Notes under the pieces: generated by a model
The model's input: the letters and a program-made list of their open reading frames with translations, nothing else
Told to the model about the DNA's origin: nothing
The model's database searches: none
Shown: positions 10,352 through 29,792 of the stretch, piece after piece
Position numbering within the stretch: the first letter of the stretch is position 1
How the letters are laid out: each line of letters starts with the position of its first letter
Source of the DNA: a virus
Taxonomy: Duplodnaviria; Caudoviricetes
Direction: 5' to 3' (one strand)
Virus record (IMG/VR): IMGVR_UViG_3300025706_000001
Coordinates: 1-64,000 of that record
DNA: 64,000 nucleotides
Position numbers and translations under genes: made by a program

Positions 10352-10446
10352 GGCGGTGCTCCTGATGATCTTGTTTTATCGGCCTCTCTACTGGTATGAT
10401 AGTAGGGCATGAATGCTGTCCTCAACCAGATTCCGAGGTATTTGCG

Positions 10447-16284: not shown

Positions 16285-16668
16285 TCAGTTAAGGAAGATG
16301 GATGGCATCCGTTCCCTCGCGGTAAGAATGGCATCGCAGTCCCAAAGGTGCTGAATGAGATGTTGAGAAATGAGGTTGTGCAGCGAGTCGTCTTGTGCGG
16401 CATCGAGTTGCTGATTGCACCACGCGCAGACACCACACCCCATGACCCTTGATTGGCCAAATGGTGTATGCAGTTCATTTAGGACAGCTTGGCTTGGAAT
16501 CCAGCACATGGCAACCGTGGCCTGCCGGCCGCAGATGGTGCAGCGAGCCTTGCCGCTTGATACCTGTTGAAGCGTCATCAGCTGGCAAACGGCAAGGGCT
16601 TGCGGGTCTGGGTACATGGGAATCTCCTCTGCCATGATTGTAGCCTGGTTGAGGATTTCCTGCATCAC
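16285..16668 (-). CDS. Zn-binding hypothetical protein
   Basis: CTIC...CAWC. Confidence 0.55.
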   Translation of the reverse strand: MMQEILNQATIMAEEIPMYPDPQALAVCQLMTLQQVSSGKARCTICGRQATVAMCWIPSQAVLNELHTPFGQSRVMGCGVCAWCNQQLDAAQDDSLHNLISQHLIQHLWDCDAILTARERMPSIFLN

Positions 16669-16802
16669 GAGCCGTAGAATTCTTGGTAAAAACCTTGGAT
16701 TCCGGATTGATCAAAAGGGTTTCCAGGACGTAAAATCGGGCTGCTGGCGGCGTGCGGCCGTCCAGCAGCCCTACCACAATCACCTTAACAAGGAAGGCGA
16801 TC

Positions 16803-17591
16803 ATGTCTGAAACCAATTCTACCGAAGTCTGGCGTCCAGTTGTAGGCTACGAGGGACTTTATGAAGTCTCGAACCTGGGGCGAGTCAGAAGCCTTGATGT
16901 CAGGGTTAATTGTGCCAACAATGCAACTCGGGTAAAGCGTGGCAAAGTGATCTATCAGCACGAAGATGACGATGGCCGCATGAGTGTCCACTTATGCAAG
17001 CTAAATCGTTCAAAAACAGTGCGAGTTCATCGACTTGTGCTTGAGGCGTTTGTGGGTTCGTGCCCAGATGGACTCCAATGCTGTCACTGGGACGGCAATG
17101 CCAGCAACAATCGGGTCGAAAATCTGCGATGGGGTACGCAAAAAGAGAACGAAAAAGATAAAGACCGGCACAAGAAAAGGCCACTTGGCGAGAAAGATGT
17201 TCATGCAAAATTAAAAAATTGGCAGGCCGCAGAGATACTTAATGGAATCGGAAAGACAACGGTAGTTAGCTTAGCAAGGAAGTTTGGGATTAGCGGGAGT
17301 ACTGTGTGTGGAATACAGACAGGTCAGATATGGAAGCATCTTCCCCGCCCAAGTGACCTTGAAAAAAGAAAGAAAATCTACCAGAATCACAAGTTAAATG
17401 AACAAAAGGCACAGGAAATTCGCAGCTTGCGAGGAGCCATGTCAGTGCATGAGATTGCGAGCATGTATGGAATTAGCAAGTGGAATGTATATCACATTTG
17501 GTCTTGCACTACGTGGAAGAATGCTGAAGAGGATTCAGGGACTTCCACGAATCCATCCACAGTTCGCGAGAAAGCTGATGCGAAGCTATGA
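16803..17591 (+). CDS. NUMOD4-HNH homing endonuclease with C-terminal HTH repeats
   Basis: EVWRPVVGYEGLYEVSNLGRVRS (NUMOD4), VHRLVLEAF..CCHWDGNASNNRVENLRW (HNH); opposite strand and more AT-rich than its surroundings. Confidence 0.92.
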   Translation: MSETNSTEVWRPVVGYEGLYEVSNLGRVRSLDVRVNCANNATRVKRGKVIYQHEDDDGRMSVHLCKLNRSKTVRVHRLVLEAFVGSCPDGLQCCHWDGNASNNRVENLRWGTQKENEKDKDRHKKRPLGEKDVHAKLKNWQAAEILNGIGKTTVVSLARKFGISGSTVCGIQTGQIWKHLPRPSDLEKRKKIYQNHKLNEQKAQEIRSLRGAMSVHEIASMYGISKWNVYHIWSCTTWKNAEEDSGTSTNPSTVREKADAKL

Positions 17592-18141
17592 TGTCATTCT
17601 CTGGAAGTGGCCGGCGAGTTTGATTCCCCCACGGCACAAATCGGCGATCCTTGAACAGACTAACGCGGTGCTGCCTTGCGATTGCTCCAACAAGTACGTC
17701 TTCTGGACCACTCGGCGCGGTTAGCTCACTGGATATAAGCTGTGCAAGGCTGCGGTCTACAAAATACATCGCCCCGCCACTTGCGTATCCGCGCCATCTG
17801 CCGCCTGGTTCGCATCCGACGTACCGTTTGTCTGTGAAGTCATACTGAACAAGGCGGTCTGGGATAAGCAGCGAGTCATTGTCGCCCTTTCCGATGTAGT
17901 CTGCATCAGTGTTTTCGACTGCCCATTCCATCCAAGCCCTTGTCTTCTGGGGCAGGCAAGTGTAGGTGTCTGGGACCGGGAAGTAGAGCGTGTCTTGTTC
18001 TTGTCGAAACTCGACCACACCACCGCGCAGGAAGTAAACTGGGATCGCCAGTTCCGTGGCTGTCTTCAGCCATGTTTGACGAACAAGCTCGTCCCTGTCG
18101 TCGTGTTTAGCACAAGATAGTAGGCCGATGACGAGCTTCAT
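17509..18141 (-). CDS. GT31/fringe-like galactosyltransferase-family glycosyltransferase
   Basis: RQTW, DTYTCLPQKT, YIGKGDNDS (DxD-like), ASGGAMY, PEDVLVG motifs. Confidence 0.8.
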   Translation of the reverse strand: MKLVIGLLSCAKHDDRDELVRQTWLKTATELAIPVYFLRGGVVEFRQEQDTLYFPVPDTYTCLPQKTRAWMEWAVENTDADYIGKGDNDSLLIPDRLVQYDFTDKRYVGCEPGGRWRGYASGGAMYFVDRSLAQLISSELTAPSGPEDVLVGAIARQHRVSLFKDRRFVPWGNQTRRPLPENDIIASHQLSRELWMDSWKSLNPLQHSST

Positions 18142-18145
18142 GGTT

Positions 18146-18370
18146 TCAGTCTCGTCCCCATACAAAAGGAAGCCAATAAGCAAACCGCCACCAGAACCCT
18201 TTGGCGACATGGTAGTAGCAGTCGCTACCATGCGGAATATCAGGCTTCAAGCGGAAAATCCCGATGTTCACGCGACGCCACCCGAACGGAAGTTCGTGGT
18301 ATCCTGGCTCGACGGTAAACCACCAGTTCCAGCTCTTGAAGTCCAGGCGTTTTGGGTATCGCATTGTCAT
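18146..18370 (-). CDS. small Trp-rich hypothetical protein
   Basis: 74-aa ORF filling an operon gap. Confidence 0.45.
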   Translation of the reverse strand: MTMRYPKRLDFKSWNWWFTVEPGYHELPFGWRRVNIGIFRLKPDIPHGSDCYYHVAKGFWWRFAYWLPFVWGRD

Positions 18371-18448
18371 TTACCCCCGAAGATAAACATGGCTCCTCCA
18401 ATAACCGTTAGGGCATATAGTACGACCATAAATGTCCAACATGCCCAA

Positions 18449-18850
18449 TCAGCAGATGGTGAATCGTTTCCGGAATTCAGTTCCACTCCAGTCCGGCCGC
18501 CGCTTGGCGTAGAACACCGGGATCGGCAGGTCGTCTCCGACATAGGCTTGTCCAATGTAGTCCTCTCCCAAGATTCGCACGGCCGGTCGCACGGCGCAGA
18601 TCAAGTCGTACAGGTCTTCTTCGGTGTTGTAGGGAATCACTTCAACAATCTGCCGAAGCGATGACAGAAGGTATCCACGTTCCTCTACTGTGAGTGTAGG
18701 GCGCGGCTTGCCTCGCTGCAACGATGGATCGGTGTGAAGTGCGGCGATGATGCCTGTGCAGACTCCAGCTTCGATGGCTTGGTCCATTGCCCAAATCGCA
18801 CCAGGATGCGGAAATGGGCAGAACGAGCTGGCGAGCAGGCCGAGGGTCAT
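18449..18850 (-). CDS. cytidylyltransferase-like (HxGH superfamily) sugar-phosphate nucleotidyltransferase
   Basis: SSFCPFPHPGA (variant of FDxxHxGH), TVEERGYLL, YNTEEDL, RILGEDY. Confidence 0.75.
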   Translation of the reverse strand: MTLGLLASSFCPFPHPGAIWAMDQAIEAGVCTGIIAALHTDPSLQRGKPRPTLTVEERGYLLSSLRQIVEVIPYNTEEDLYDLICAVRPAVRILGEDYIGQAYVGDDLPIPVFYAKRRPDWSGTEFRKRFTIC

Positions 18851-19557
18851 AGCGTGAATCCCGATGAAGCGGCGTCGCCCATGAACATCTGGACGGTTTC
18901 CCGACTGAACTCGTCGAGCGACTTGCCAAATAATTTCAGCTTCAACAGGAACGTCGGAAACACGGTGATTATGTGGCACCCCACGGCGTCGGCCTGGAGT
19001 ACGTTGTAGGGTTCTCGCACGCTCGCCCAAATGACTTGATGCGGCGTTCCTTCGGTTTCGTGGATGGCGTGCTGGACGTAGGGCAAGGGGCACTGTCCGG
19101 CGTCTGCGATGCGTCCCGCGAACACAGAAACGTACCCGGCAGAGCCCCCGTCCAGGGCTTCGCAGACGGTCGCGATCTGTTTGTGTGTGAAGATGGCCGT
19201 AACGTTGATATGGATTCCGGCCTGGGATAACTCCCGAATCAAGGCGGCGTTGCTCTCGCCGGTGGTTCGCACCACGGGAATCTTGACGAAGATGTTGGTG
19301 CCAAGGCTGGCCAGCTGCCGAACTTGTCTACGGATGCCATCAGGTTCGTCGGCCAGTACCTCCAAGGACAAAGGCATGTGGGGAAATTCGGCGGCAGCTT
19401 CGCGGCAGAAGTCAAGGTAGTTTGCGACTCCCGCTTTTTTGGCAAGGCTAGGATTCGACGTGTATCCACAGACGAGACCGGCAGCGGTCATCTCGCGCAT
19501 CTGCCCGAGATCGGCAGAATCACAGTAAATTTTCACTCGGAGTTTTTCAAGATCCAT
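18847..19557 (-). CDS. tal: transaldolase (TalC/Fsa type)
   Basis: YCDSAD, GYTSNPSL, FVKIP Schiff-base Lys, INVTAIF, SVFAGRIAD, WASVRE. Confidence 0.92.
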   Translation of the reverse strand: MDLEKLRVKIYCDSADLGQMREMTAAGLVCGYTSNPSLAKKAGVANYLDFCREAAAEFPHMPLSLEVLADEPDGIRRQVRQLASLGTNIFVKIPVVRTTGESNAALIRELSQAGIHINVTAIFTHKQIATVCEALDGGSAGYVSVFAGRIADAGQCPLPYVQHAIHETEGTPHQVIWASVREPYNVLQADAVGCHIITVFPTFLLKLKLFGKSLDEFSRETVQMFMGDAASSGFTL

Positions 19558-20042
19558 TCGACGATCTCCTTTTGTATTCCGCAGTTGGTGTTAAGTTTTA
19601 CTGCTCGTCGCTGTGGTATGACGGCATTGATTGCGGCAGTAATGTCGGTCCAGCGATCACCGATCATTGCGCATAGCGGTAGCCTAAGGTCATGCTCATA
19701 CGCTGCTGTAAAAAGCATTCCTGGGCTTGGCTTTCTGCACGAACATCCATCGTTCTGGTCGTGGCAGCAGATGTAGTATGCGTCGAGTGGAATGGAATAC
19801 ACAATTTCTCGGCATATCGCTTCAGTGTCTTGCCTGCTAATGGCTCCTCTTGCTACATCGGGTTGGTTCGTGACCATGATGAGCTTGTATCCCGCCTGTC
19901 GCAGTCTTTGACATGACTCTTGCACGTCTGGAAGGTACTCGATTTCTTCGATTGTTCGCGGCCCTCGTGTCGTTTCGCCTTCTGGAAAGGCGCGGACGAG
20001 AACTCCATCGCGATCGAAAAACACGGCCTTGGCAAGTGTCAT
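19533..20042 (-). CDS. gmhB: D-glycero-D-manno-heptose-1,7-bisphosphate phosphatase
   Basis: FFDRDGVL, VTNQPDV, CCHDQNDGCSCRKPSPGM, MIGDRWTD. Confidence 0.9.
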   Translation of the reverse strand: MTLAKAVFFDRDGVLVRAFPEGETTRGPRTIEEIEYLPDVQESCQRLRQAGYKLIMVTNQPDVARGAISRQDTEAICREIVYSIPLDAYYICCHDQNDGCSCRKPSPGMLFTAAYEHDLRLPLCAMIGDRWTDITAAINAVIPQRRAVKLNTNCGIQKEIVEWILKNSE

Positions 20043-20437
20043 GGCACTGGTCCATTTGGTGCTGGCTGTTCGATGACAACAGGAATTCCGAAAATCGTAT
20101 CTGGCAGCCCAAAGTTGGCTGGCAGGTCGCCTGGTGGTGGCCCATACGTTTCAAGAATCAGAAGACCCTTTTCTGTAATCTCGAAATCGCCACGACACCC
20201 GCAGGTGCAGCCGTTTACAAGTCCGCGTCTGATAAGCGTCGCCATTTTCGCGAGGGCCAGCTTTGGTGGCGTTCCCGGTGGCATTGCGCGAAGCACGCTG
20301 TTGTCTGGTTGGTAATCATCGGTCCAGAACCACGTTCCCCACTTAGGCAGTCCAGGTTGCCATTCCGGCATGTGGGCCAGGAAATGCAGGATGGGCCAAT
20401 CGGGGATGTCTTTGCACTGAAGGTGGTTGTGCTTCAT
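20039..20437 (-). CDS. conserved hypothetical phage protein
   Basis: QCKDIPD...KLALAKM..LIRRGLVNGCTCGCRGDF; GGAGG RBS. Confidence 0.7.
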   Translation of the reverse strand: MKHNHLQCKDIPDWPILHFLAHMPEWQPGLPKWGTWFWTDDYQPDNSVLRAMPPGTPPKLALAKMATLIRRGLVNGCTCGCRGDFEITEKGLLILETYGPPPGDLPANFGLPDTIFGIPVVIEQPAPNGPVP

Positions 20438-20646
20438 CGCTTTCCTCCAAGCAGCCCCTTGAAAAAGTCCGGTATGCTGTCGTGGTGCTCCAGGTGGGCC
20501 TGTTCGTCCGCGTCCTGTCGGCCCCGCTGACATGCTCGCCGCACTGCCTCCTTGAATGACAGCACCCCGATCCGCATCGTGCCCTCGGGGCGTCGCAGCC
20601 CTGGGGTCGCGTCCTGGAGTTGCTGCCAGTAGGCGTCGAAGGTCAT
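20434..20646 (-). CDS. hypothetical protein
   Basis: MTFDAYW.. ORF with ATGA coupling to neighbours. Confidence 0.55.
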   Translation of the reverse strand: MTFDAYWQQLQDATPGLRRPEGTMRIGVLSFKEAVRRACQRGRQDADEQAHLEHHDSIPDFFKGLLGGKR

Positions 20647-21449
20647 GGCGGGGCTCCGGTCGTTTTCCATGTTTCGCCGAGCACTATGGATTCTACCGTT
20701 CGCAAATGAACACCAAACAGTTTGGCGACTTCCGTCCGCTTCATTGACTTGGCAGCGTCTCGAATTCGTTCCGCATCTGCTGCGCACAGCTTCTTCCCGA
20801 CATGTACCTTGGGTCTATTAAGTGCGTCATCGACCGTCCATCCTCTCCTGAGTCGCCCGATCACTAAAGAGCAGCTGGTGCCTGCCAGTTCACACGCTTC
20901 TGCGAGGCACATCCGTTTTCCTCGATACTCGACGACATGATTTTGCCGCGTGTTTCTGGATTGCTCGGTCTTGGTCGCCCACCTGACATTTCCTGGTTCG
21001 TAGTTCCCATTGGTGTCGATTCGGTCAATGCTGTGGTTCTTTGATGGGCGTTTGCCTATATAGTCAAAGAATGTCTGAAACGAGTTTCGCCACTCGTCGC
21101 ATACCCGAATTCCTCGGCCGCCGTAGTATTCGTACTGCGAAGCTCCCGGTCGCTCGCACCTCGCTATCATGCGTTTCCACGTTTCGTGTTCTGCGGTGTT
21201 TGACATGCCATGTGTGAGGTTTTGTCGTATTCGATGGTCACGCCTCCAGCATCCACATGACTTAGAATTATTACTGACCAAACTTTCGGTGGTTACTCTC
21301 CCAAGTGCTCCGCATTCACACCGACAAAGCCACACCGCCTGTCCGCGCTGAGTGTTTTCTAAACGACGAATGACCGTCCATCTATTAAATGTTTGGTCGG
21401 TGAGGTCCTTGAAAAACGGCGAAATTCGTTTAGACTTACCAGTAGCCAC
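20643..21449 (-). CDS. HNH homing endonuclease
   Basis: WLCRCECG, SKSCGC, YGGRGIRVCDEW, SIDRIDTNGNYEPGNVRWAT..QSRN. Confidence 0.9.
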   Translation of the reverse strand: MATGKSKRISPFFKDLTDQTFNRWTVIRRLENTQRGQAVWLCRCECGALGRVTTESLVSNNSKSCGCWRRDHRIRQNLTHGMSNTAEHETWKRMIARCERPGASQYEYYGGRGIRVCDEWRNSFQTFFDYIGKRPSKNHSIDRIDTNGNYEPGNVRWATKTEQSRNTRQNHVVEYRGKRMCLAEACELAGTSCSLVIGRLRRGWTVDDALNRPKVHVGKKLCAADAERIRDAAKSMKRTEVAKLFGVHLRTVESIVLGETWKTTGAPP

Positions 21450-21529
21450 GACGGTATCTCCTTACCGATTGAGGTTAGAACAGCCTGTGACGCACCAACG
21501 TCCAGTCTGTTCGTATTGTATTCCTGTAT

Positions 21530-22123
21530 CTATTCTGTTGCAAGGCTTTCCCACTTTGCTGGCTTCACTGCGACTGCCGACACTATCGCATGGAGAACAA
21601 CTGCCTGTACGCCTTCTACAACAAATGTCACAAGTTCGGGCGCGTCGCACGGGACCAGGACTGTCACGTCGGAATACTTGCCCGTGAATCCACCGTCCCG
21701 ACCCACGATCGCCAGCGTGGTAGCGTCGAGTTGGTTGGCGTGGTCCATCGCGTAGACGAGGTTTTCCGACACGGGTGGCTCCAGTGAACCTCCCCCGACG
21801 CTCACGATCAGCAGGGCGTCGCTGTCGCTAAAACGTGAACCTCGAAGCCACTCTAAGTAAGCGGTCGGCCAGCCGTCGTCGTTCACTCGTGCCGTCAGTT
21901 CGGCCGCGTTGTCGCTGGGACAGTACGCTTCAAGGCCACAGAGCTTGCGGAAGTCCGCTGCCCCGTGACTGGCGTGTGCGGCCCCGCCTCCTGATCCGAC
22001 AAGAAAGAGACGACCACCTTGCTGTCGAGTTTTCACAATCGCATCAGCCATGCGGTCGATGGCCTCTGTGTCAATGGCCTGAATGCTTCGTACTGTCGCA
22101 GCCAAAACGTCCTGGGTGGTCAT
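21530..22123 (-). CDS. gmhA: phosphoheptose isomerase (SIS domain)
   Basis: LVGSGGGAAHASH, ELTARVNDDGW, SVGGGS, VGRDGG. Confidence 0.88.
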   Translation of the reverse strand: MTTQDVLAATVRSIQAIDTEAIDRMADAIVKTRQQGGRLFLVGSGGGAAHASHGAADFRKLCGLEAYCPSDNAAELTARVNDDGWPTAYLEWLRGSRFSDSDALLIVSVGGGSLEPPVSENLVYAMDHANQLDATTLAIVGRDGGFTGKYSDVTVLVPCDAPELVTFVVEGVQAVVLHAIVSAVAVKPAKWESLATE

Positions 22124-23019
22124 TGGACGATTCTCGCTCCTTCGTTAGTGAATTGAAACGGCGTCTCGACTAGTCCTGCTGCGGTCATGGTTTCGACAAG
22201 ATTCTGGCGGTTTGGCGGTTCAACGACGAACAGAAAATAGCCTCCACCACCCGCCCCACATACTTTTGCCCCACTGGCCCCTTTCTCGCGGGCGAGAGCG
22301 TACCACGCATCAATCGCAGGGTTGGACATCATTCTCGTCGTAGCTCGCTTCTTCTGCCAGTGCAAGTCTGTCAATTCACCGAATCGCCGCCCCTCGTTCT
22401 CCAGCAGATCCTGGTAGATCTCGCGCCCGATCGCAGCAATCTCTTCCATCAGTCCCGCCGAGCCGCCAGACAGGATGCAGGCAGCCTGCTCGCCAAGGAC
22501 TTGGCCTGCCTCCCGCTGGATACCCGTTCCCATGAGTAGTAGCGTAGCGCCAAAGCGTGCAGGAAGCCAAACTGGATCTACTCGCACATGACCGCCCTCG
22601 TCGATTGTGAGTGCCATACTGCCACCGTATGCCGCTGCGTAGCAGTCCTGATAGCCGATTGGATTGTGCAAACTGTACCTCTCCAAAGAATAGGCGGCTT
22701 GTGCCAGTTCGTACTTGGTCATGTCGTGGTATCTGGCCTTGAGCAGGGCCACCATCAGCGACCCGCTGCCGCCCAGGCCACTGCCGCTTGGAACGTCTGA
22801 TTCGATCTGGACAAGATCGTAATCGCCCCAGCCAGCCGCCTTGGCATAACGCAACTGCGGACAGGTGTTCAGGCGGTTGCCGATTTCGACCTTGACGGTC
22901 AGCGACAGGCTGATCGTGGCGGTCACGACAAAGCCTTGGTGGCCGGAACGCCAGTATGCGGCGCAATCGCTGCCGCCACCTGCTAGGCACAATCGTAGGG
23001 GGGCGCGGACTGTAATCAT
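22120..23019 (-). CDS. hddA: GHMP kinase, D-glycero-alpha-D-manno-heptose-7-phosphate kinase-like
   Basis: RAPLRLCLAGGGSD, PSGSGLGGSG, GYQDCYAAAYGG, GAKVCGAGGGG. Confidence 0.88.
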   Translation of the reverse strand: MITVRAPLRLCLAGGGSDCAAYWRSGHQGFVVTATISLSLTVKVEIGNRLNTCPQLRYAKAAGWGDYDLVQIESDVPSGSGLGGSGSLMVALLKARYHDMTKYELAQAAYSLERYSLHNPIGYQDCYAAAYGGSMALTIDEGGHVRVDPVWLPARFGATLLLMGTGIQREAGQVLGEQAACILSGGSAGLMEEIAAIGREIYQDLLENEGRRFGELTDLHWQKKRATTRMMSNPAIDAWYALAREKGASGAKVCGAGGGGYFLFVVEPPNRQNLVETMTAAGLVETPFQFTNEGARIVQ

Positions 23020-23966
23020 GTTTCATGCCTCCACGCCGATTCTATCATGGATTCCAGCGTCTTGTACTTGGGTCGCCAGCCGAGTTCTAACTGAGCTTTG
23101 TCCGAGTTGGCAATCAGCGCCCGTGGGTCTCCTGGGCGACGAGGCCCTTCAATGACCTTGACCTGCTTCCCGGTCACCCGCTCGACCGTGGCGATGACTT
23201 CCCTGTTACTGTACCACGTTCCGATGCCCAAATTGAAGACGCCTTTGATGTTGGGATTTTCCAGTGCCAAGCAATGGGCCGTCGCGATGTCGTCAACGTG
23301 GACGTAATCACGAAGAGGCGTGCCATCTGACGTGTCAAAGTCAGTGCCGTTAAGGGTCATTTCCGGCCGGACGCCCCTGGCGGTGTCCATTGCCACGGAA
23401 ATCAACCTTGATCGGTGGATAGGCCGCTCCCAAACGCGCTCCGTGGCACCGCAGACGTTGAAGTACCGAAACGCCACCCATTGAAGCCCTGGCATCCATC
23501 GCAGTGATTGCTCAAAAGCCAGCTTCGACGCACCATACGGTGATTCGGCGGACAATTTCGAGTCTTCAGTCAGAGGCATCTGGTTGTCGTGAGCGTAGAC
23601 TGCGGCGGTGCTGCTGTAGACGAGCCTATGGACACCAGCGCGGTACATGGACTTCAGCAGCATTAAGCCGCCAGTCACGTTGACTCGGTAGGCGAGCAAT
23701 GGGTCATTCTGGCATACTGGAATTTCGCTTTCGGCCGCTAGGTGGCAAACGGCTTCGATCTTGTTTGATTCCAGGGCGAACAAAATTGCGTGTTGATCGT
23801 TGTGGTCCGTAAGGTCGCGCCGAATCAAGGTTGTTCCTGGCGGAAGCGAGTCCCTTGACCCGTATTTCAGGTTGTCGATCACAACAACCTTGTGCTCACG
23901 TTCAGTAAGTTTCCAGCAGACAGCACTTCCGATGTAGCCGGCCCCGCCAGTGACCAAGACTTTCAT
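23016..23966 (-). CDS. galE: UDP-glucose 4-epimerase-like SDR
   Basis: VTGGAGYIGS, SSTAAVY, SPYGASK, RYFNVCG, DGTPLRDYVHV, RRPGDP. Confidence 0.9.
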   Translation of the reverse strand: MKVLVTGGAGYIGSAVCWKLTEREHKVVVIDNLKYGSRDSLPPGTTLIRRDLTDHNDQHAILFALESNKIEAVCHLAAESEIPVCQNDPLLAYRVNVTGGLMLLKSMYRAGVHRLVYSSTAAVYAHDNQMPLTEDSKLSAESPYGASKLAFEQSLRWMPGLQWVAFRYFNVCGATERVWERPIHRSRLISVAMDTARGVRPEMTLNGTDFDTSDGTPLRDYVHVDDIATAHCLALENPNIKGVFNLGIGTWYSNREVIATVERVTGKQVKVIEGPRRPGDPRALIANSDKAQLELGWRPKYKTLESMIESAWRHET

Positions 23967-26236
23967 TGAGACACCTTCTTTCCTGACTTGACTCTGGCTT
24001 CTACTCGTTTTTTCCAATCACTGTTTCGAGTGTAATGATGCAAGAATACCGGGACAATCCCGCTTTCAACAGTGCAAAATCCGTTTCTGTCAAGGGTGGC
24101 TAATGATTCAGTGGCAAACGCTTCGCCCTTGTCTTTGGGCTCGATGACCGTGGCGGCGATATTGGCACACCAGCCCTCTCGCTGCAAGGCGAACTTTGTT
24201 CGGCTTCGGTATTTGTCTGAGTGAAGCAGGATATTAAAAGCGTCCTGGTCGTTTGGTTTCGTGTAGGGCTTTGAGCAGCACATGTTCCATGTGTCGCTTG
24301 CAAGCTCTCGCATGGCCCCTGCTTTTGCTGCAAAAGAACCGGCGTTGTACAAAAGTCGCTTTGAAGCGATGTCGTAGTGTTCTGGAAAGGTATCCTTCAA
24401 GTTCTGTCGGACCCACCATTGGTCGCAAATGTGAATACACTCGCTGCCGACAACGATTTCGTAGCCTTCAGCGTCTCGTCGTAGCCAACTGATTGGATTG
24501 GCTTGAAGGACGATATCGGTCGTGTCGAGCATGATTACCCAGGCGTTGTCTCTGGTAAAGGTAGCTAGCCTTGCAAGGTCCCGGAAGCGGTCAACAACAA
24601 CATGCCGCTCTAGCTTACAAGGAACTGGAATGAATCCATGCTGCCTGAGTCGCCGAGTTGAACAGTCGTCGATTCGGTAAGTCAGGACACACACATGGCC
24701 GTCAAACGACGTAAGATGAATAGAGTTGGCCCATGTCTCAAACTGTGTCCATCGGAGCTTATCGACAGCTCCGACGATGACGGGGCGACCGTCTCGTAGA
24801 GGAAACAGCACGCTTTCAAATTCGTCAATCTTCAGTTCAACGGGCTGCTGCTTATTGACAATTGTCGGTCTGGTCGGGATATGCGCTGCGGGAATGTTTC
24901 GTGCAGCTTCAAGTCGCATGTGGCCAGGAAAGGTCTTCCTGAGAAATGGTTCGGCCAAGTGGATTTGTCGAGCAGCGTAGCGGGCAACTTCGAGTCGCCC
25001 GTCAAATGAGTCGCAGGGAACGTCTTGAAGCAGTTTGCCAAACGTCTTGTGATACGACTCAACCAAACCCATGTCATATTCATTGGATTGGTCAAGTATT
25101 GGGCTTCCGGATTCGTCAACGTCTGCAACGTGCCAATGAGGGGCGTAATTCAGCATCTCAAGATAGCTGTTGTTGATCTTATGGTCTCGCTGATTGAGAA
25201 GGTACGAGAATGTGAGCTTGCTTACGTTTTCGTCCGTAGACGGAATAAAGAACATCGTGAATATGTGCGGAACCTGTCGCAGGTGAGGCAGTAAGATCGC
25301 AAACGACCTAAGCGACCCCGCCAGGTCAACGACTACAGAATCAGAGGTAATGTGCTCGTTGGCGTAAGCAACATAAGTCTCTGTGTGATTGCGCATACAC
25401 TCCCGGCTGCAATACAAGTACAGCGATGCGGTCTCCGGGTAGATGGTGGACCATAGCTTCTGTGGGAGATAGCCGTCACGGGAGAGAAAGATGACCTTAT
25501 TTGCGCGATTTGCGTCCACGAACTCCCGAAGCTCGTGCAGGAAGGCAAGGAGCATGGGCATGTTGAACTGGATCTGCATGTCGGAGAGCTTGCCACTCAC
25601 TCCAGTTCGCACTTCGCTTAGTCGATGGTAACGAACCCACCATGCCAAGGATTCACTGTATTGGGCATAAGTCTGCTCGTGGGTATCTAGCCCAGTCGAA
25701 GCAAGTTCGGTGCGGATATGGAGCTGCCTGGGCGTCTTAACGTCATTGTTGCGATTGTCGTCGACGTGGACTGAGACTGCGTGCTTGGATTTCACGTCAC
25801 TCCAAATCGCACCTTTCGCTTTGCCGTGGCAAGTCACGTAAATCGTCAGGTCTTTCTCAATTCCTGCCGCATCAAGGATAGTCCTAATCTGAGCGGCGGA
25901 AAGGTACATGTCACTGACGGCTATGTCTCCAGGTTTGACACGACTTGCGTACTGTGCAATCGGGAACGCCTGCTCACATTCGACGGTAAGTTCACGTTGA
26001 CATAGATCGTCGGCTTGGGCGTCCGAGAATCCGCTGTGATTGGCAAGTTGTTTGTAGATGTCATGGATGGTGTAATCTTGCCATCCGGTCTGGACGACGG
26101 TCTCAGCATTGCGACGCATTTCGACGAATCCTTCGATGCCTGCCAGCGCGCCGACGAGCGACCATAGCCTTGCGGGCGTGCCGCACTTACGGCCAATGAT
26201 AGTGTCAAAGATATCCCAGCTACGAACAGTGTTCAT
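23963..26236 (-). CDS. HAD-like hydrolase fused to a glycosyltransferase-like C-terminal domain
   Basis: SWDIFDTIIGR, VSDMYL, FLSRDG; C-terminal MLDTTDIVLQANP, YNAGSF, NDQDAFN. Confidence 0.75.
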   Translation of the reverse strand: MNTVRSWDIFDTIIGRKCGTPARLWSLVGALAGIEGFVEMRRNAETVVQTGWQDYTIHDIYKQLANHSGFSDAQADDLCQRELTVECEQAFPIAQYASRVKPGDIAVSDMYLSAAQIRTILDAAGIEKDLTIYVTCHGKAKGAIWSDVKSKHAVSVHVDDNRNNDVKTPRQLHIRTELASTGLDTHEQTYAQYSESLAWWVRYHRLSEVRTGVSGKLSDMQIQFNMPMLLAFLHELREFVDANRANKVIFLSRDGYLPQKLWSTIYPETASLYLYCSRECMRNHTETYVAYANEHITSDSVVVDLAGSLRSFAILLPHLRQVPHIFTMFFIPSTDENVSKLTFSYLLNQRDHKINNSYLEMLNYAPHWHVADVDESGSPILDQSNEYDMGLVESYHKTFGKLLQDVPCDSFDGRLEVARYAARQIHLAEPFLRKTFPGHMRLEAARNIPAAHIPTRPTIVNKQQPVELKIDEFESVLFPLRDGRPVIVGAVDKLRWTQFETWANSIHLTSFDGHVCVLTYRIDDCSTRRLRQHGFIPVPCKLERHVVVDRFRDLARLATFTRDNAWVIMLDTTDIVLQANPISWLRRDAEGYEIVVGSECIHICDQWWVRQNLKDTFPEHYDIASKRLLYNAGSFAAKAGAMRELASDTWNMCCSKPYTKPNDQDAFNILLHSDKYRSRTKFALQREGWCANIAATVIEPKDKGEAFATESLATLDRNGFCTVESGIVPVFLHHYTRNSDWKKRVEARVKSGKKVSQ

Positions 26237-27144
26237 GACTTGCGAAAGATGATGTTCAGGAATTGCCGACTCCAACCACGGGACAGCGGAAGATTGACGG
26301 ACTGCATGTACTGCCACAGCAGGTTGGTTTCGAGGTCGTCCCGATACCATGCCATCATTTCCGGGCCGAGTCCATCGTCGGCGACCAAAGATTGGATGTC
26401 CCGTGTTCCGAAGGCGATCTCAAAGTCATGGAAACTGAGTCCGGTTCCAAATCCGTGACGCATTTCAATCAGTTTCGCTTCTGACTGTGCCGCCGCCCAT
26501 TTCATGGATTCCCGATAGGCGTCATGCGGGGCGCGGCCGAAGTAGCGAATGGCGATTTGGTCGGGTAGCATGTGACCGAACGGCATTCGCGTGGCGTGCA
26601 GATCGTGATACGTCAACCGGTTCGGAGTGTGGGCGACGATGAACAGTCCGCCCGGCCGCAAGAGGTTCCAGAAACATCGCATGAGTTCCAGTCGCGGAAC
26701 TTCGGGGATGTGTTCCAGGATGCCGATGCAGGGAATCGCGTCCACGCCGTCGGGGAATCGTCGCGGAAGGTCGTCTACGGCGTCGTCGGCAGAGACATGG
26801 AAAACGGCAGGGCCTTGCAATCCGAGTATGGATAACCTGGCACTTGCGGCGCGTACCATGATCGGGTCGATTTCGTAACTGGCTAGGCTACAGCCGGTTT
26901 TTGCCAGGGCGCACGTCATCGGCCCCATTCCGCATCCGGGTTCCAGCACGGAAAGTCCTCGCAACGAACGAGTCCGCTGAATCCACGGAATGACAAGCGT
27001 TTCCATTGTCGCCTGCCTTGCCCAGACAAGTTCTTCCATGTCCTTCTGGATTGCCGCCGTACTGACATTGGTCGTGTCTCGTCTGGCAAGATGTTCTGCC
27101 AATGACTCAAGTATCAATGTTTTCTGGTGTTTGCTGATGTTCAT
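26233..27144 (-). CDS. class I SAM-dependent methyltransferase
   Basis: VLEPGCGMG, ILEHIP, LLRPGG, TPNR. Confidence 0.85.
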   Translation of the reverse strand: MNISKHQKTLILESLAEHLARRDTTNVSTAAIQKDMEELVWARQATMETLVIPWIQRTRSLRGLSVLEPGCGMGPMTCALAKTGCSLASYEIDPIMVRAASARLSILGLQGPAVFHVSADDAVDDLPRRFPDGVDAIPCIGILEHIPEVPRLELMRCFWNLLRPGGLFIVAHTPNRLTYHDLHATRMPFGHMLPDQIAIRYFGRAPHDAYRESMKWAAAQSEAKLIEMRHGFGTGLSFHDFEIAFGTRDIQSLVADDGLGPEMMAWYRDDLETNLLWQYMQSVNLPLSRGWSRQFLNIIFRKS

Positions 27145-27644
27145 GGGACATTCGGAAACGGGGTGTCGGGAACGTCTTTGTCAAGGAATTTGCACAATGG
27201 ACCCCATCCATCGCCGTCGCAGATTCGCAAGATCAAAAGGTCGTCTGCCGGGACGGTGTTCAGGATGCTTGCGGCGTGCTTGCGGAACATGGCGGTCCAG
27301 CGACGGCGATTGGGGCATCCGCAACTCCAAAGGGTCATATTGGACTCTCGTGTTCCGCCGCCATGCCGTGCTTGATGTGCGGAAAGTGAATCAAACCAGC
27401 GATCGGCATCTCGGGTAGTGAGAATCAACTTGCAATGGTGCTGCTGATAGATTTCCCGCCAGAAAAACCAGAACGGCTCGAACACACATTCGATCTCACC
27501 GAAAATGTCCCAGTTGTCGGGCGGGTTGTAGAAGTCGATCAGCGATTGCGCAGAATGGACAGAGTTGTAGCCAAGCGTCTCTAGTGCGACGTGAAGCGAG
27601 CTAGTCCCCGTCCGGTTCATTCCGCAGCAGAGGATTTTGAGCAT
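27141..27644 (-). CDS. sulfotransferase-family protein
   Basis: CGMNRTGTSSLHVALETLGY, ILTTRDADRWFDS, GWGPLCKFL..PFPN. Confidence 0.85.
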   Translation of the reverse strand: MLKILCCGMNRTGTSSLHVALETLGYNSVHSAQSLIDFYNPPDNWDIFGEIECVFEPFWFFWREIYQQHHCKLILTTRDADRWFDSLSAHQARHGGGTRESNMTLWSCGCPNRRRWTAMFRKHAASILNTVPADDLLILRICDGDGWGPLCKFLDKDVPDTPFPNVP

Positions 27645-29011
27645 TAGTCTGATTCGTAGCAAGGAAGCATTGGTTCTTCTTGGACTTTTGGTTCGATCGT
27701 CTGGTCTGTCAAGCACTTTGGACAAGTCAGTCCATTTCTGGCATTTGCTTCTTCGCAGGCAGACGATCCGCCGTGCTGAAAGCATAGCATTGGGTGCGGC
27801 TCTTCGCTTGGCAGAAGTTCTTCTTGATCTACTGGTTCTTCCACTTGGTCGGCCGCGTCTTGAAGAGCCTGCATGTCGCGGCAGGTTGGCAGGGCGTTCT
27901 GAACTGGCGAAAGTTCTTTCTGAACTTTTGGCATGACCGAAGCCTCGTCAAACCATGTCCTGTCGGCTGAAGTGCCGTAGGCTGTCTCACAGGGCAGGCC
28001 AAGGACCTCGCGCCACTGCTCCCAAACGAGGTCTGGGTTGGAAATTTCGGTCTCCAGCCGTCGCCGGGCCTGGGTGGCAATCGTCATGCGCAGGTCTTCG
28101 TCCCTGGACAGCTTGGCAGCTTGTCGCCCGATGTCCTGTGGTGAGTTTCCGAGCATTCCCGTGACTTCGTGTTCGAGCATTTCAGTCCAGCCGCCACGGT
28201 TCTCGGCGCATGTCGGCACCCCGTAGGCCATGCACTCCAATCCGGTGCGGGGCCAGTTCTCCATATCCATGTCGTTGCAGGTGACGTGGGCGTGAAGCTG
28301 CGGCCAGAATGATTCAATTGGAACTGCGCCGGGAGGGGAAGCCTTGGCCCAGGATGGGGCGAGGCCAATCTGTCTTGTGGTTTCCTGTGTAACCCCAAGC
28401 AGAATGGCCTGTCGGTCGGGAACTTCCTCGTACATCTTCCACCAATGTTTGCTCCACTTGGAAGCTCTGCCGCGAGAAGCTCTGCCGATGTTAAACGGCT
28501 CACCCTTCGCGTGCGAACGAGGGGCGAACTTGATCTTCTCCCAGTCGATATATCCTCGCACGAGATGAAACTTGTCGAGTCCGTATCGTTGGACTTGAGG
28601 AAGAAGAACGGACTTCTGGTACTCGGACTGAAAGATGATATCGCTGATCAGTCGCTCTCTGAGAGCACCGGTCACCGTTTGCCGAAGGAAGCACATGAGC
28701 GGGGCCACGATGAACCGACAGCCCATCTTGGCAAGCTGCCGCTTAGCCATGAAGGCGTTGTCGTTACAGAATGTGATGACCGTGGAACCAGCGAATCCTT
28801 GGATCGTGTGAAGCAGCCTGGGGCCGGGAAGGTAAACACTGCAGCCCATGCCTTCCAACTGGTCGGTAATTTGCTTGCCGGGGCCGTTCCAGGTGGGGAT
28901 CACGCCCACGTCGAGGCCATGTTTTAGCCACAGAGACACCGCGCCAAGCATTTCGCCGTTGGCACCGCCAACCTTGCCTGGGGATGGACATCCCAGAACG
29001 AAAACCTTCAT
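27644..29011 (-). CDS. GT-B (GT4-like) glycosyltransferase
   Basis: ENWPRTGLECMAYGVP..GGWTEMLEHEVTGML. Confidence 0.85.
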   Translation of the reverse strand: MKVFVLGCPSPGKVGGANGEMLGAVSLWLKHGLDVGVIPTWNGPGKQITDQLEGMGCSVYLPGPRLLHTIQGFAGSTVITFCNDNAFMAKRQLAKMGCRFIVAPLMCFLRQTVTGALRERLISDIIFQSEYQKSVLLPQVQRYGLDKFHLVRGYIDWEKIKFAPRSHAKGEPFNIGRASRGRASKWSKHWWKMYEEVPDRQAILLGVTQETTRQIGLAPSWAKASPPGAVPIESFWPQLHAHVTCNDMDMENWPRTGLECMAYGVPTCAENRGGWTEMLEHEVTGMLGNSPQDIGRQAAKLSRDEDLRMTIATQARRRLETEISNPDLVWEQWREVLGLPCETAYGTSADRTWFDEASVMPKVQKELSPVQNALPTCRDMQALQDAADQVEEPVDQEELLPSEEPHPMLCFQHGGSSACEEANARNGLTCPKCLTDQTIEPKVQEEPMLPCYESD

Positions 29012-29190
29012 GTCGGCTCCTTTGACTTGTGGACGATGCGGTACTCCGTGGACGGGTCGTTCTTATGGGCCTCAATGTACAAATCAATTGCCCGCCGTAC
29101 AAGCTCAGCCACGGGCGCACCTGTCCGCTTTGATTCTGCTGATAGTTTGGCCCTGCGGTCTTCGTCGAGACAAATGCTTGTTCGGATCAT
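29008..29190 (-). CDS. ribbon-helix-helix (CopG-like) DNA-binding protein
   Basis: MIRTSICLDE..KLSAESKRTGAPVAELVRRAIDLY. Confidence 0.8.
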   Translation of the reverse strand: MIRTSICLDEDRRAKLSAESKRTGAPVAELVRRAIDLYIEAHKNDPSTEYRIVHKSKEPT

Positions 29191-29273
29191 GTACTCACCA
29201 TTGGGCCAACCTGAACTTTTGGCACGAATCACATGCGCCAGTGCATGATTATGGCAAAGTGCATCAACTGGCG

Positions 29274-29747: not shown

Positions 29748-29792
29748 TTTGCGCCGATGTTGCGGACAATTAAGTGAGCGGAGACCTGCAGG

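Follow-up and report, generated by a model that had tools for sequence, protein, structure and literature searches.

The gene cluster described here lies in a 64,000-nucleotide window, positions 1 to 64,000 of a wastewater phage genome (IMG/VR record IMGVR_UViG_3300025706_000001; 128,867 bp, a complete virus record with a 127-bp terminal repeat). Between 18449 and 23966, the minus strand codes for a GalE-type epimerase, an HddA-like kinase, a GmhA-like isomerase, a GmhB-like phosphatase, a transaldolase and a small nucleotidyltransferase (NT). A preliminary description of the sequence had named these six genes as one operon, and profile matches together with overlapping codons bear out the presence of all of them. 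The operon nevertheless exceeds this interval, with a GT4 gene as its upstream limit (29011) and a GT31-like gene as its downstream one (17509), and it is central to a glycan cluster of 11.5 kb (17509-29011) that also holds three glycosyltransferase-like genes, one methyltransferase and one sulfotransferase. Most junctions are start/stop codon overlaps of 1-4 bases: ATGA or TAATG overlaps join the GT4, sulfotransferase, methyltransferase, 757-aa protein, GalE, HddA-like and GmhA-like genes, and further down the gene of a 164-aa protein is joined to gmhB and the transaldolase gene to that of the NT, while gmhB and the transaldolase gene overlap by 25 bases. Every reading frame of the operon is intact. 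The operon stands between the terminase gene (10396-12033) and tail and head genes, and the GC content is 0.561 in the operon core and 0.559 in the whole genome; these flanks and equal composition, in a complete virus genome with a terminal repeat, exclude host-derived flanking DNA, which the preliminary description had named as a possible objection. Contigs of one metatranscriptome library match pieces of the NT, transaldolase, GmhB, GmhA, GalE and methyltransferase genes at ≥99% identity, a weak hint only of operon transcription because DNA carry-over is possible.

The HddA-like kinase (22120..23019, 299 aa), a putative heptose-7-phosphate 1-kinase, has both GHMP N and C domains and matches NF049969 at 4.5e-43 (148 bits, cut-off 600); its top solved relatives, WcbL 4usm (6.2e-33), 3k85 and 4n3o, are each heptose kinases. 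The GmhA-like SIS-domain protein (21530..22123, 197 aa), a putative sedoheptulose-7-phosphate isomerase, matches PF13580 with 34.1 bits (cut-off 27) and the NCBIfam GmhA models with 40-42 bits, far under their cut-offs of 209-320; 13 of its 15 solved matches are phosphoheptose isomerases (best 4.7e-08) and the other two are DiaA. The GmhB-like HAD-IIIA protein (19533..20042, 169 aa), a putative heptose-1,7-bisphosphate 7-phosphatase, passes TIGR01656 (99.3 bits, cut-off 84.15) and stays below the cut-off of the GmhB model NF006506 (98.1 bits, cut-off 178). The best four of its five solved matches are heptose bisphosphate phosphatases (1.4e-14), with which its C-x-H...C-x-C-R-K-P loop aligns. 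As judged by sequence comparison, the best characterised relatives of the kinase, the isomerase, the phosphatase and the NT all appear to be heptose-pathway enzymes, and none of them reaches the NCBIfam equivalog cut-off (148/600, 42/209-320, 98/178 and 32/181.5, respectively). The transaldolase (18847..19557, 236 aa) is a short, subfamily-5-like enzyme (PF00923 at 4.1e-36) that scores slightly under the cut-off of TIGR02134 (258.8 bits, cut-off 281.95); its closest solved relatives are housekeeping short transaldolases, with 3r8r at the top (7.4e-21) and the K-I-P Schiff-base segment aligned. The epimerase (23016..23966, start at M18), linked to its neighbours by ATGA overlaps at both ends, was rightly described as GalE-like: this NAD-dependent 4-epimerase scores 317.1 bits against TIGR01179 (cut-off 262.3) versus 134.4 bits against the ADP-heptose 6-epimerase model TIGR02197 (cut-off 274.6).

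The activating enzyme of the cassette is unusual. The NT (18449..18850, 133 aa; phrog_7878 at 1.8e-17), presumed to be a heptose-1-phosphate nucleotidyltransferase, starts at the ATG at 18850, which forms an ATGA overlap with the transaldolase stop; a 214-aa ORF from 19093 was rejected as upstream read-through. It falls below the cut-offs of TIGR02199 (32.3 bits, cut-off 181.5) and PF01467 (16.9 bits, cut-off 21), whereas its AF2 model (pLDDT 87.8) retrieves TagD 1coz as top Foldseek match (TM 0.78/0.82) and HldC at rank 19. Profile scores follow the same order (ECT 72 bits, TagD 57, HldC 42), so that in sequence and fold the NT is closer to the glycerol-3-phosphate and ethanolamine-phosphate cytidylyltransferases than to HldC, the choline-phosphate cytidylyltransferases being also among its closest solved relatives. 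Its signature loop, F-C-P-F-P-H-P-G-A, has one inserted residue and two substituted ones relative to the canonical F-D-x-x-H-x-G-H; missing are the HxGH motif's second His and the Asp ahead of it, both catalytically required in relatives. This agrees with the cytidylyltransferase fold and variant HPGA motif first described for this protein, though not with HPGA as an isolated oddity: among the 115 relatives spanning the motif, 102 have HPGY and only four have the second His, and orthologues from the same conserved cassette have HPGA, HPGH or HPGY. HPGA is thus not a lone defect, the second His being absent from the whole subfamily, whose signature is HPG[Y/x] and W-S-[T/G]-T. G4, H15, G17, D41, R46, K48, R58, R117, W121, S122 and T124 are invariant in a 25-sequence alignment, and in a census of 121 sequences, from which G4 was left out, the other ten each recur in no fewer than 119 of the sequences having a residue at that position, which shows the family to be under constraint.

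In the whole genome we found no GT-A-fold PF00483 gene, in line with the earlier remark that the HddA-type kinase lacks an HddC partner, nor any PF00294 (PfkB-type) or PF01075 (GT9) gene, nor any recognisable heptosyltransferase family member. No other nucleotidyltransferase or heptose kinase was found in the genome, which leaves the GHMP kinase and the small NT as sole candidates for their steps.

Around this core, a 455-aa GT-B enzyme of the GT4/GT1 family (27644..29011, minus strand, as are all genes of this paragraph; PF00534 at 9.1e-08, NCBIfam GT4 models up to 1.5e-08) heads the overlapping chain and is a candidate heptosyltransferase. Its TAA stop overlaps by one base the ATG of the sulfotransferase (27141..27644), whose start is probably M48 of the longest ORF, whose Sulfotransfer_4 domain (PF17784 at 1.3e-31) spans residues 50-213 of that ORF, and which is ATGA-coupled to the gene that follows. 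There come next a 303-aa SAM-dependent methyltransferase (26233..27144; PF13489, PF08242 and PF13649 at ~1e-10) and a two-domain protein of 757 aa (23963..26236; longest ORF 795 aa) with no Pfam, NCBIfam or PHROG match. For the latter, ESM Atlas offers leads only: feature searches place GT8/RgpF/HAD clusters nearest (0.82-0.89), and structure searches lead from residues 39-484 to HAD-hydrolase-containing clusters and from 521-788 to viral clusters, so the N-terminal half might be a HAD-like domain of the type found fused to glycosyltransferases and the C-terminal half a phage-typical GT-like domain. At the other end, downstream of the NT, lies a GT31-like GT-A enzyme of ~210 aa (17509..18141; PF01762 at 1.4e-10), found at the same position with 46-58% identity in five related contigs (L028, L029, L030, L150 and L151).

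Two genes inside the interval had been passed over in the preliminary description: an HNH homing endonuclease (20643..21449, minus strand; phrog_374 at 1.7e-67) inserted between gmhA and gmhB, and the 164-aa gene (20039..20533, minus strand; phrog_5135 at 1.3e-19, phrog_14052 at 7.8e-13), part of this insertion and ATGA-coupled to gmhB. In L150 and L031 gmhA directly adjoins gmhB, with no HNH gene between them, and tblastn gave no match to the 164-aa protein in any related locus. Three further runs, which belong to different studies, yielded contigs with near-identical copies in which the HNH insertion is also present.

The cassette is conserved in related phages, where a search for it had been proposed. 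The viral contig L150 has nine genes in unchanged order, from the methyltransferase through the 757-aa protein, GalE, HddA, GmhA, GmhB, transaldolase and NT to GT31 (84, 62, 60, 45, 48, 53, 50, 79 and 46% identity, respectively), with homologous phage genes at its flanks. The order GmhA-GmhB-transaldolase-NT-GT31 is kept in the short metagenome contigs L028-L031.

The gene set provides, as had been proposed, the complete logic for activating heptose, including a transaldolase of its own. In the pathway that we infer, the transaldolase would form sedoheptulose-7-phosphate from fructose-6-phosphate and erythrose-4-phosphate, the GmhA-like isomerase would convert it to D-glycero-D-manno-heptose-7-phosphate, the GHMP kinase would phosphorylate C1, and the GmhB-like phosphatase would take off the 7-phosphate, before the NT joins heptose-1-phosphate with an NTP. 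The product is most likely an NDP-heptose, probably the alpha anomer by analogy with HddA and WcbL. Known cytidylyltransferase-fold heptose enzymes act on the beta anomer, while alpha is expected from GHMP kinases, and we know of no characterised precedent for pairing the two. GalE would supply a 4-epimer, UDP-Gal(NAc) or possibly an NDP-heptose epimer, and the soluble GT4, GT31-like and 757-aa transferases, with the methyltransferase and sulfotransferase, would assemble and decorate the glycan. We therefore favour, with moderate confidence, a phage that in late infection produces a nucleotide-activated heptose by itself, which it builds with other sugars into a glycan, methylated, sulfated or both, attached to an acceptor in the cytoplasm. 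This acceptor may be virion or other proteins or, almost as probably, a host envelope glycoconjugate, is rather improbably DNA and only very improbably something else.

The NT might instead activate a polyol phosphate or terminal sugar phosphate, so that a CDP-linked ketose or alditol, for instance, would result, with the heptose branch stopping at heptose-1-phosphate or being completed by a host enzyme. Its nearest solved relatives fit such substrates, and in a heptose-making Campylobacter capsule locus a cytidylyltransferase is reported to act on fructose-6-phosphate, followed by a reductase, to give CDP-6-glucitol. Most NT relatives from viral contigs have no heptose genes in their neighbourhood, and when 76 more distant viral-contig loci of the NT were searched by tblastn, no match to HddA or GmhA lay within 10 kb, so the family overall is not tied to heptose. 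We consider this unlikely, however: the NT start overlaps the transaldolase stop, the place after GmhB-transaldolase is kept in four related contigs, and in Synechococcus phage SynMITS9220M01 the homologue forms a fusion with a HAD-like domain, encoded between gmhA and the epimerase gene. Shifting the phosphate from C7 to C1 is sensible only with later C1 activation, for which the genome encodes no other nucleotidyltransferase. Of 80 viral loci, 27 have an SDR sugar-nucleotide enzyme close to the NT, which also fits a sugar-1-phosphate better than a polyol phosphate, and where SDRs directly following distant relatives were tested, all five were RmlB-like NDP-sugar 4,6-dehydratases (300-336 bits), enzymes whose substrates are anomerically linked sugars. 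An octose or other higher-carbon sugar seems similarly unlikely: the transaldolase would join a C3 unit to a pentose phosphate, and the octulose-8-phosphate would pass through isomerase, GHMP kinase, phosphatase and NT to NDP-octose. The lincomycin pathway, as reported, uses the same enzyme types (LmbR transaldolase, with F6P or S7P as C3 donor and ribose-5-phosphate as acceptor, LmbN isomerase, LmbK phosphatase and LmbO nucleotidyltransferase) to make GDP-octose; the transaldolase gene is embedded with overlapping codons between gmhB and the NT gene, a place kept in L150, L028 and L031, and the need for a dedicated enzyme supplying an abundant pentose-phosphate-pathway intermediate is not obvious. 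Yet this transaldolase comes close to the ordinary equivalog cut-off, has housekeeping enzymes as best solved relatives, and is not listed in the stretches of Caulobacter phage Cr30 and SynMITS9220M01 carrying the homologous kinase, isomerase and NT, for which heptose derived from host S7P is simpler.

That the activated heptose hypermodifies phage DNA, in the manner of heptosylated 5-hydroxymethylcytosine (5hmC), evading host nucleases, is very unlikely, although a preprint describes mono- and di-heptose attached to 5hmC DNA in E. coli, for which a phage enzyme of HAD/kinase type was required together with a cytidylyltransferase and a GT-B, and the cluster likewise holds a cytidylyltransferase-fold NT and a GT-B enzyme and none of its enzymes has a predicted membrane segment. 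Six-frame searches of the complete genome (E<=1) gave no C5 cytosine methyltransferase (PF00145), TET/JBP dioxygenase (PF12851) or thymidylate-synthase-like hydroxymethylase (PF00303), hence no known route to a hydroxylated base for glycosylation, and a methyltransferase, a sulfotransferase and at least three transferases suggest a larger glycan than known on DNA; of the acceptors first proposed, DNA is thus disfavoured. Least likely of all, the cassette could be a decaying or inactive passenger whose NT no longer works for want of the second His and the Asp of the signature loop; the divergent loop and the homing endonuclease inside the operon would fit, but the frames are intact with neat overlaps, the diverged L150 keeps the cassette at 45-84% protein identity, the motif varies among the NT orthologues of the cassette while the ten counted positions hardly vary in the 121-sequence census, and the further runs carry near-identical copies, insertion included.

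Synthesis of an NDP-heptose, the reading we prefer, has viral counterparts, and functional viral heptose enzymes are already in the published literature. A GHMP kinase accompanied by GmhA, a small cytidylyltransferase-like NT and an SDR epimerase had been annotated before in Cr30 (gp006 GmhA, gp008 HddA-type kinase, gp009 glycosyltransferase, gp010 epimerase, gp178 NT) and in SynMITS9220M01 (genes 203-207: glycosyltransferase, kinase, isomerase, HAD-like::NT fusion, epimerase), so the novelty first attributed to the cassette was overstated. The glycosyltransferase beside HddA in both phages belongs to GT1/GT4, like the 455-aa enzyme here, and the heptosylated 5hmC system, as the preprint presents it, indicates that a cytidylyltransferase-fold enzyme can serve phage heptose activation.

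The six genes that the preliminary description had assigned to one heptose operon are all present, in the place and on the minus strand where it had put them: GalE (23016-23966), an HddA-like GHMP kinase (22120-23019), a GmhA-like SIS protein (21530-22123), a GmhB-like HAD-IIIA phosphatase (19533-20042), a transaldolase (18847-19557) and a 133-aa cytidylyltransferase-like nucleotidyltransferase (NT; 18449-18850). Two genes missing from that list lie between gmhA and gmhB and code for an HNH homing endonuclease (20643-21449) and a 164-aa PHROG-5135 protein (20039-20533). The cassette is the core of an 11.5-kb glycan cluster, which follows immediately downstream of the tail and head genes and is oriented as they are. 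A GT4 (GT-B) glycosyltransferase (27644-29011) heads an overlapping chain that continues with a Sulfotransfer_4 protein, a methyltransferase, a two-domain protein of 757 aa, GalE, the kinase and the isomerase, linked by ATGA or TAATG overlaps that were read at the junctions. Overlapping codons also couple the 164-aa gene to gmhB and the transaldolase gene to that of NT, and gmhB and the transaldolase gene overlap by 25 bases. A GT31-like transferase (17509-18141) lies downstream of NT, across a spacer of about 300 bases without a conserved ORF; a 74-aa ORF in this spacer (18146-18370) was rejected as a gene, having no tblastn match in the related loci. The cluster has a G+C content (0.550; 0.561 for the core) in line with the genome value of 0.559. 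A scan of positions 16500-31000 for promoters and terminators remained at chance level (5 sites resembling promoters and 14 resembling terminators, where shuffled sequence gave an expectation of 6.6 and 14.3), the top promoter-like site (29277-29248, 10/12) being upstream of GT4.

The HNH and 164-aa genes appear to be an insertion in this phage, since the isomerase gene directly abuts that of the phosphatase in two related loci, L150 and L031. The inserted stretch (20039-21449) looks mobile, leaves the operon undisrupted and was found in contigs of three other runs. An ESM Atlas search with the two-domain protein in its longest-ORF form (795 aa) gave feature scores that were all below 0.9 and are used as leads only. 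Just upstream of the cluster, a 444-aa protein (30287-31621) with a weak GT21/GT-A-like match (E 0.012) may be a further glycosyltransferase.

The virus record is complete (128,867 bp, with a 127-bp terminal repeat), the window being its first 64 kb. It is that of a tailed phage encoding a Mu-like portal, a Mu gp36-like adaptor, a large terminase (10396-12033), SSB, RecT, helicases, a sigma factor and a Dam methylase. No relative was detected in INPHARED, either by megablast of the cassette or by tblastn of a 361-aa structural protein. Beside the terminase, a 241-aa protein (12421-13146) matches DUF7873 from end to end with an unusually strong score (305.7 bits, 3.6e-91), and a 1,822-aa protein with a ddrB-like ParB domain (50593-56061; PF18763, 5.4e-07) is encoded among the structural genes. 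A 2,062-aa ORF that covers positions 59461-64000 of the window and extends to genome position 65649 combines terminase/primase-like P-loop matches with a domain resembling 2'-5' RNA ligases, a LAGLIDADG/Hom_end segment that may be an intein, and helicase C and InPase domains. Further along, a B12-binding radical SAM enzyme (genome 80737-82134) adjoins a pectate-lyase-like beta-helix protein (genome 79709-80740), which is probably a tail spike or depolymerase.

GalE scores 317.1 bits on TIGR01179, above the equivalog cut-off of 262.3 (303.1 bits for its L150 orthologue), and 134 bits on the HldD-type ADP-heptose 6-epimerase model TIGR02197, below the cut-off of 274.6. The transaldolase lies just below the TIGR02134 cut-off (258.8 against 281.95 bits) and aligns with solved short transaldolases through the K-I-P Schiff-base segment. 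For the kinase, the HddA model NF049969 is by far the best (148 bits, against 61 for the next, fucokinase; HddA cut-off 600), and the solved heptose kinases WcbL, 3k85 and 4n3o are matched at about 1e-32 (6e-33 at best), apart from a deletion of some 35 residues following the N-terminal motif. The phosphatase passes the histidinol-phosphatase and HAD-IIIA domain models TIGR01656 (99.3 bits, cut-off 84.15) and TIGR01662 (77.4 bits, cut-off 44.6) and stays below the cut-off of the GmhB equivalog (98 against 178 bits); its best solved relatives are GmhB proteins, with the Cys/His loop and the R-K-P motif aligned. Thirteen of the 15 solved matches of the isomerase are phosphoheptose isomerases, the best one being weak (E 4.7e-08); an Asp replaces the Glu of the A-A-E segment, and the NCBIfam GmhA equivalogs give 40-42 bits against cut-offs of 209-320. 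All four core enzymes (kinase, phosphatase, isomerase and NT) stay below the cut-offs of their NCBIfam equivalog models and are distant members of their families and not orthologues of characterized enzymes.

The absence of a GT-A-fold HddC, which the preliminary description had implied, holds for the whole 128,867-bp genome: a six-frame search gave no match to PF00483 at E<=1, the control being positive in 14 of 14 genomes. PfkB kinases (PF00294) likewise gave no match at E<=1 in the genome, and the GT9 heptosyltransferase family (PF01075) is absent from it.

The NT model (AF2; pLDDT 87.8, pTM 0.81) has the Rossmann-like cytidylyltransferase fold, with 104 PDB matches at E<=0.001, TagD (1coz) being the best by Foldseek (TM 0.78/0.82) and HldC only the 19th. 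With a family profile, the scores are 72 bits for ethanolamine-phosphate cytidylyltransferase, 57 for TagD and 42 for HldC. Since TagD and ethanolamine-phosphate cytidylyltransferase outrank HldC, sequence and fold alone do not say heptose. On TIGR02199 (HldC/RfaE-domain-II) NT scores 32.3 bits (7.3e-08; cut-off 181.5), and on PF01467 16.9 bits, below the cut-off of 21; most of its close relatives carry a precomputed PF01467 match.

The signature motif reads F-C-P-F-P-H-P-G-A, HPGA occupying the place of HxGH. Its variation was surveyed in NT itself and 120 listed sequences out of 161 relatives found at E<=1e-5 among 5.8 billion proteins, 115 of these sequences covering the motif. Among these 115, HPGY is largely predominant (102), followed by HPGH and HPGV (3 each), HPGA and HPGI (2 each), and HCGQ, HYGY and HAGH (1 each); the second histidine is thus present in only 4, and H15 and G17 in all. 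D41, R58 and W121 are kept in all 121 sequences, R46, K48, R117 and T124 in 120 each, and S122 in 119. These sequences form a distinct subfamily without a conserved second histidine. The segment R117...W121-S122-G123-T124, whose family form is W-S-[T/G]-T, aligns with R-T-E-G-I-S-T-T of TagD, an instance of the R-x-x-G-x-S-T-T nucleotide-binding motif, so that the "fifth residue" of (F/L)xxGxSTT corresponds to the invariant Trp. A commentary on Tang et al. 2024 ties an Arg at this position (the "STTR5" hallmark) to nucleotide promiscuity, whereas the present subfamily has Trp. The fourth motif position varies even among orthologues of the same cassette, with HPGA in this phage and the short metagenome contig L028, HPGH in L150 and L151, and HPGY in contigs L029-L031. 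In addition, the signature loop (18797-18826, residues 9-18) occurs in three or more forms in a group of proteins with an overall identity of 79-87% (P0002, P0003, P0005 and those of L028 and L150), one of them with a one-residue insertion and the fourth position being A, H or Y, which suggests fast evolution or exchange of this loop.

The cassette could be traced in related phages, as the preliminary description had envisaged, the full set being found in L150 and partial sets in L151 and L028-L031. In IMG/VR, 290 relatives of NT were confirmed after a profile scan, and the 80 loci kept were probed by local tblastn with the cassette proteins and with the kinases and isomerases of phages Cr30 and SynMITS9220M01. 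L150 harbors the whole set in the same order, methyltransferase, 757-aa protein, GalE, kinase, isomerase, phosphatase, transaldolase, NT and GT31 (84, 62, 60, 45, 48, 53, 50, 79 and 46% identity, respectively). L151, which ends at a contig edge, keeps transaldolase-NT-GT31, and L028-L031 keep isomerase-phosphatase-transaldolase-NT-GT31, the GT31-like gene being the most faithful neighbor of NT. L150 and L151 also have further phage genes in common with the window, such as SSB (64%) and a 293-aa protein (61%), and were recovered only by the profile scan. The 19 loci from a first NT scan of IMG/VR (33-40% identity) all had the canonical HAGH motif and no other part of the cassette except an SDR gene in three of them, and a kinase probe of IMG/VR gave 19 pattern matches, none of which was confirmed.

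In 76 of the 80 loci, where NT is more distant (39-45% identity), tblastn found no kinase or isomerase match within 10 kb, which argues against a general heptose role for the NT family. An SDR gene is found near NT in 27 of the 80 loci, and all five SDRs tested directly downstream of NT are RmlB-like NDP-sugar 4,6-dehydratases (300-336 bits on TIGR01181, cut-off 365). These neighborhoods suggest that the family activates sugar 1-phosphates in general. An HPGY-type NT with an RmlB-like dehydratase about 40-170 bases downstream forms a recurrent two-gene module (L158, L164, L172, L205 and L221), present in distant and mostly large viral contigs that lack the kinase and isomerase nearby.

De novo synthesis of an NDP-heptose is the best available reading of the cassette. 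The transaldolase would provide sedoheptulose-7-phosphate (S7P), the isomerase would convert it into heptose-7-phosphate, the GHMP kinase would produce heptose-1,7-bisphosphate, the phosphatase would release heptose-1-phosphate, and NT would transfer a nucleotide to give NDP-heptose. By moving the phosphate from C7 to C1, the kinase-phosphatase pair would be sensible only if C1 is then activated, and NT, the only activating enzyme of the genome, is assigned to that step. HddA/WcbL-type GHMP sugar kinases presumably give alpha-1-phosphates, as established for HddA, and the product is therefore probably an alpha-linked NDP-heptose whose nucleotide is not predictable. None of the transferases is recognizable as a heptosyltransferase; the strongest candidate for this role is the GT-B enzyme encoded first in the operon, by analogy with Cr30 and SynMITS9220M01, where a GT-B gene adjoins that of the kinase.

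A more specific version of this pathway can be put forward tentatively, and we regard it as possible more than as probable. HPG[Y/x] proteins with W-S-[T/G]-T may be a phage-rich class of cytidylyltransferase-fold sugar-1-phosphate nucleotidyltransferases that need no second histidine, and here NT may work with an alpha-specific GHMP kinase to make an undescribed ADP-, CDP- or UDP-alpha-heptose. The product would then be NDP-D-glycero-alpha-D-manno-heptose in which the nucleotide is not GDP. Which nucleotide is used would depend on the invariant Trp at the fifth position, which contacts the base, and the rapid changes of the fourth motif position between A, H, Y, V, I and Q among near relatives would be either tolerated or adaptive. 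That NT acts instead on a terminal or polyol phosphate, for which there is a Campylobacter precedent, seems improbable in view of its conserved overlap with pathway genes, of the HAD-like fusion found in one relative and of the dehydratase neighbors of others. We give an equally low chance to an octose route following the logic of lincosamide biosynthesis, in which the transaldolase would use a pentose phosphate as acceptor and form octulose-8-P, although the transaldolase built into the operon would fit it. Decay of the cassette is unlikely, the frames being intact and overlapping and the cassette being conserved.

No membrane segment was found in any transferase or modifier of the cluster with a 19-residue hydropathy window, values above 1.6 being reached only in the buried C-terminal helix of the GmhA-like protein; this absence does not separate protein, DNA and peripheral lipid-linked acceptors. 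Genes for a flippase, a polymerase or an initiating phosphoglycosyl transferase were not encountered either. In the complete genome, C5-methyltransferase (PF00145), TET/JBP (PF12851) and thymidylate-synthase-like (PF00303) profiles each gave no match at E<=1, and the known chemistry of sugar-modified DNA bases would thus lack a base to start from. The candidate acceptors left are virion or other proteins and host envelope glycans, which these data do not tell apart.

Near-identical DNA is present in contigs of runs labeled anaerobic digester, activated sludge and wastewater from several studies, two possible source runs being excluded from this count. The cassette, including the HNH insertion, is covered in three DNA runs, one of which represents a strain 90-95% identical over parts. 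One metatranscriptome library contains 14 contigs at >=99% identity (12 of 30 bins are uncovered, which is not evidence of silence), and the eight pieces listed from it fall on or beside NT, the transaldolase, the junction of the 164-aa gene and gmhB, the isomerase, GalE and the methyltransferase. These contigs, which give neither strand nor level and come without a silent control, are a weak hint that the cassette is transcribed.

The genome carries three TnpB/IS605 OrfB copies (window 48993-50237 and 58068-59402; genome 84664-85836), two of them between structural genes, and L151 has a copy 54% identical near its cassette. Host assignment through these elements was rejected: their best genome matches are only 34-48% identical and are distributed over Clostridia, Chloroflexota, Cyanobacteria, Actinomycetota, Proteobacteria and archaea.

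Bacteria use heptose nucleotides to build their envelopes, and the beta forms act as strong agonists of innate immunity. Two commentaries on Tang et al. 2024 describe functional NDP-heptose enzymes in viruses, and also in archaea and eukaryotes, mention monodomain nucleotidyltransferases and ask what viruses use these enzymes for. The present cluster offers a compact, complete and conserved test case, with five enzymes predicted to lead from central metabolites to an activated sugar, accompanied by transferases and decorating enzymes. Its route bears on the nucleotide and anomer obtained by pairing a GHMP kinase with a cytidylyltransferase-fold enzyme, NT on how the HxGH superfamily functions without the second histidine, and the cluster as a whole on the target of phage heptose glycosylation. 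A practical gain could be new enzymes for making rare nucleotide sugars.

Among bacterial systems, the GDP-D-glycero-alpha-D-manno-heptose pathway, which serves S-layer and capsule glycans, begins with the three enzyme types predicted here (GmhA, HddA, GmhB), its kinase likewise being of the GHMP (HddA/WcbL) type, but ends with the GT-A-fold HddC, whose place is taken here by a cytidylyltransferase-fold protein. No hybrid route of HddA plus cytidylyltransferase was described in the titles and abstracts searched. The ADP-L-glycero-beta-D-manno-heptose pathway (GmhA, HldE or HldA+HldC, GmhB, HldD) has GmhA- and GmhB-like proteins and the HldC-type nucleotidyltransferase fold in common with the phage, which lacks the PfkB kinase, an HldD-type epimerase above cut-off and a GT9 transferase. 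The lincosamide GDP-octose route relies on LmbR as transaldolase, LmbN as GmhA-like isomerase, LmbP as kinase, LmbK as phosphatase and LmbO as nucleotidyltransferase. The same enzyme types thus form one module in both cases, a likeness of types alone, and the octose product is an antibiotic precursor in Streptomyces. We take LmbP to be a GHMP kinase and LmbO not to be of the cytidylyltransferase fold.

Among viruses, the clusters of the bioRxiv preprint 10.1101/2023.12.21.572611 (contig 53) place heptose on 5hmC DNA by means of a phage HAD/kinase, a cytidylyltransferase and a GT-B. Phosphatase/kinase, cytidylyltransferase and GT-B are phage-encoded there as here, where heptose is the predicted substrate; however, the defining genes of those clusters, for a C5-methyltransferase and a 5mYOX dioxygenase, are both missing from this phage, and their kinase is described as APH-like and not GHMP. 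The commentaries on Tang et al. 2024 state that the phosphatase is absent from viruses, whereas a GmhB-like one does occur in this phage. Phage glycan clusters beside tail genes are an already recognized theme, and a pelagimyophage study reported rfaE and glycosyltransferases within the tail-fibre region, read as host O-chain modification.

This kind of system is already known in phages. Searched by tblastn, annotated phages contain the kinase in 9 records and NT in 23. In Cr30 (NC_025422.1), gp006 is a phosphoheptose isomerase, gp008 a D,D-heptose 7-phosphate kinase, gp009 a GT1-family transferase and gp010 an epimerase, and an NT with HPGH (gp178) lies across the ends of the linear record. 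Genes 203-207 of SynMITS9220M01 (MT408532.1) code for a GT4, a kinase, an isomerase, a 250-aa protein and an epimerase, the 250-aa protein being a HAD-like N-terminus (PF25109, E 8.4e-4, below cut-off) fused to an HPGY-type NT (PF01467, 45.8 bits). In its genome announcement, the genes for kinase, isomerase and epimerase appear among heptose/LPS genes acquired from the host, and no biochemical characterization of either cassette was found in the literature searched. Both phages, like the present one, bring together a GHMP kinase, a GmhA-like isomerase, an NT of the same subfamily, a GT-B and an SDR epimerase, their proteins being only 27-35% identical to those of this phage. In contrast to this phage, the stretches examined in both lack a cassette transaldolase and a GmhB-type HAD-IIIA phosphatase; both are T4-like, whereas this phage carries a Mu-like portal and matched nothing in the phage collection. 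What is new is the completeness of the set, five enzymes that include a transaldolase and GmhB, in a non-T4-like phage, the place of the cassette in a cluster with a sulfotransferase and a methyltransferase, and the assignment of NT to a large, uncharacterized and phage-rich HPGY subfamily without the second histidine, paired here with an alpha-type kinase.
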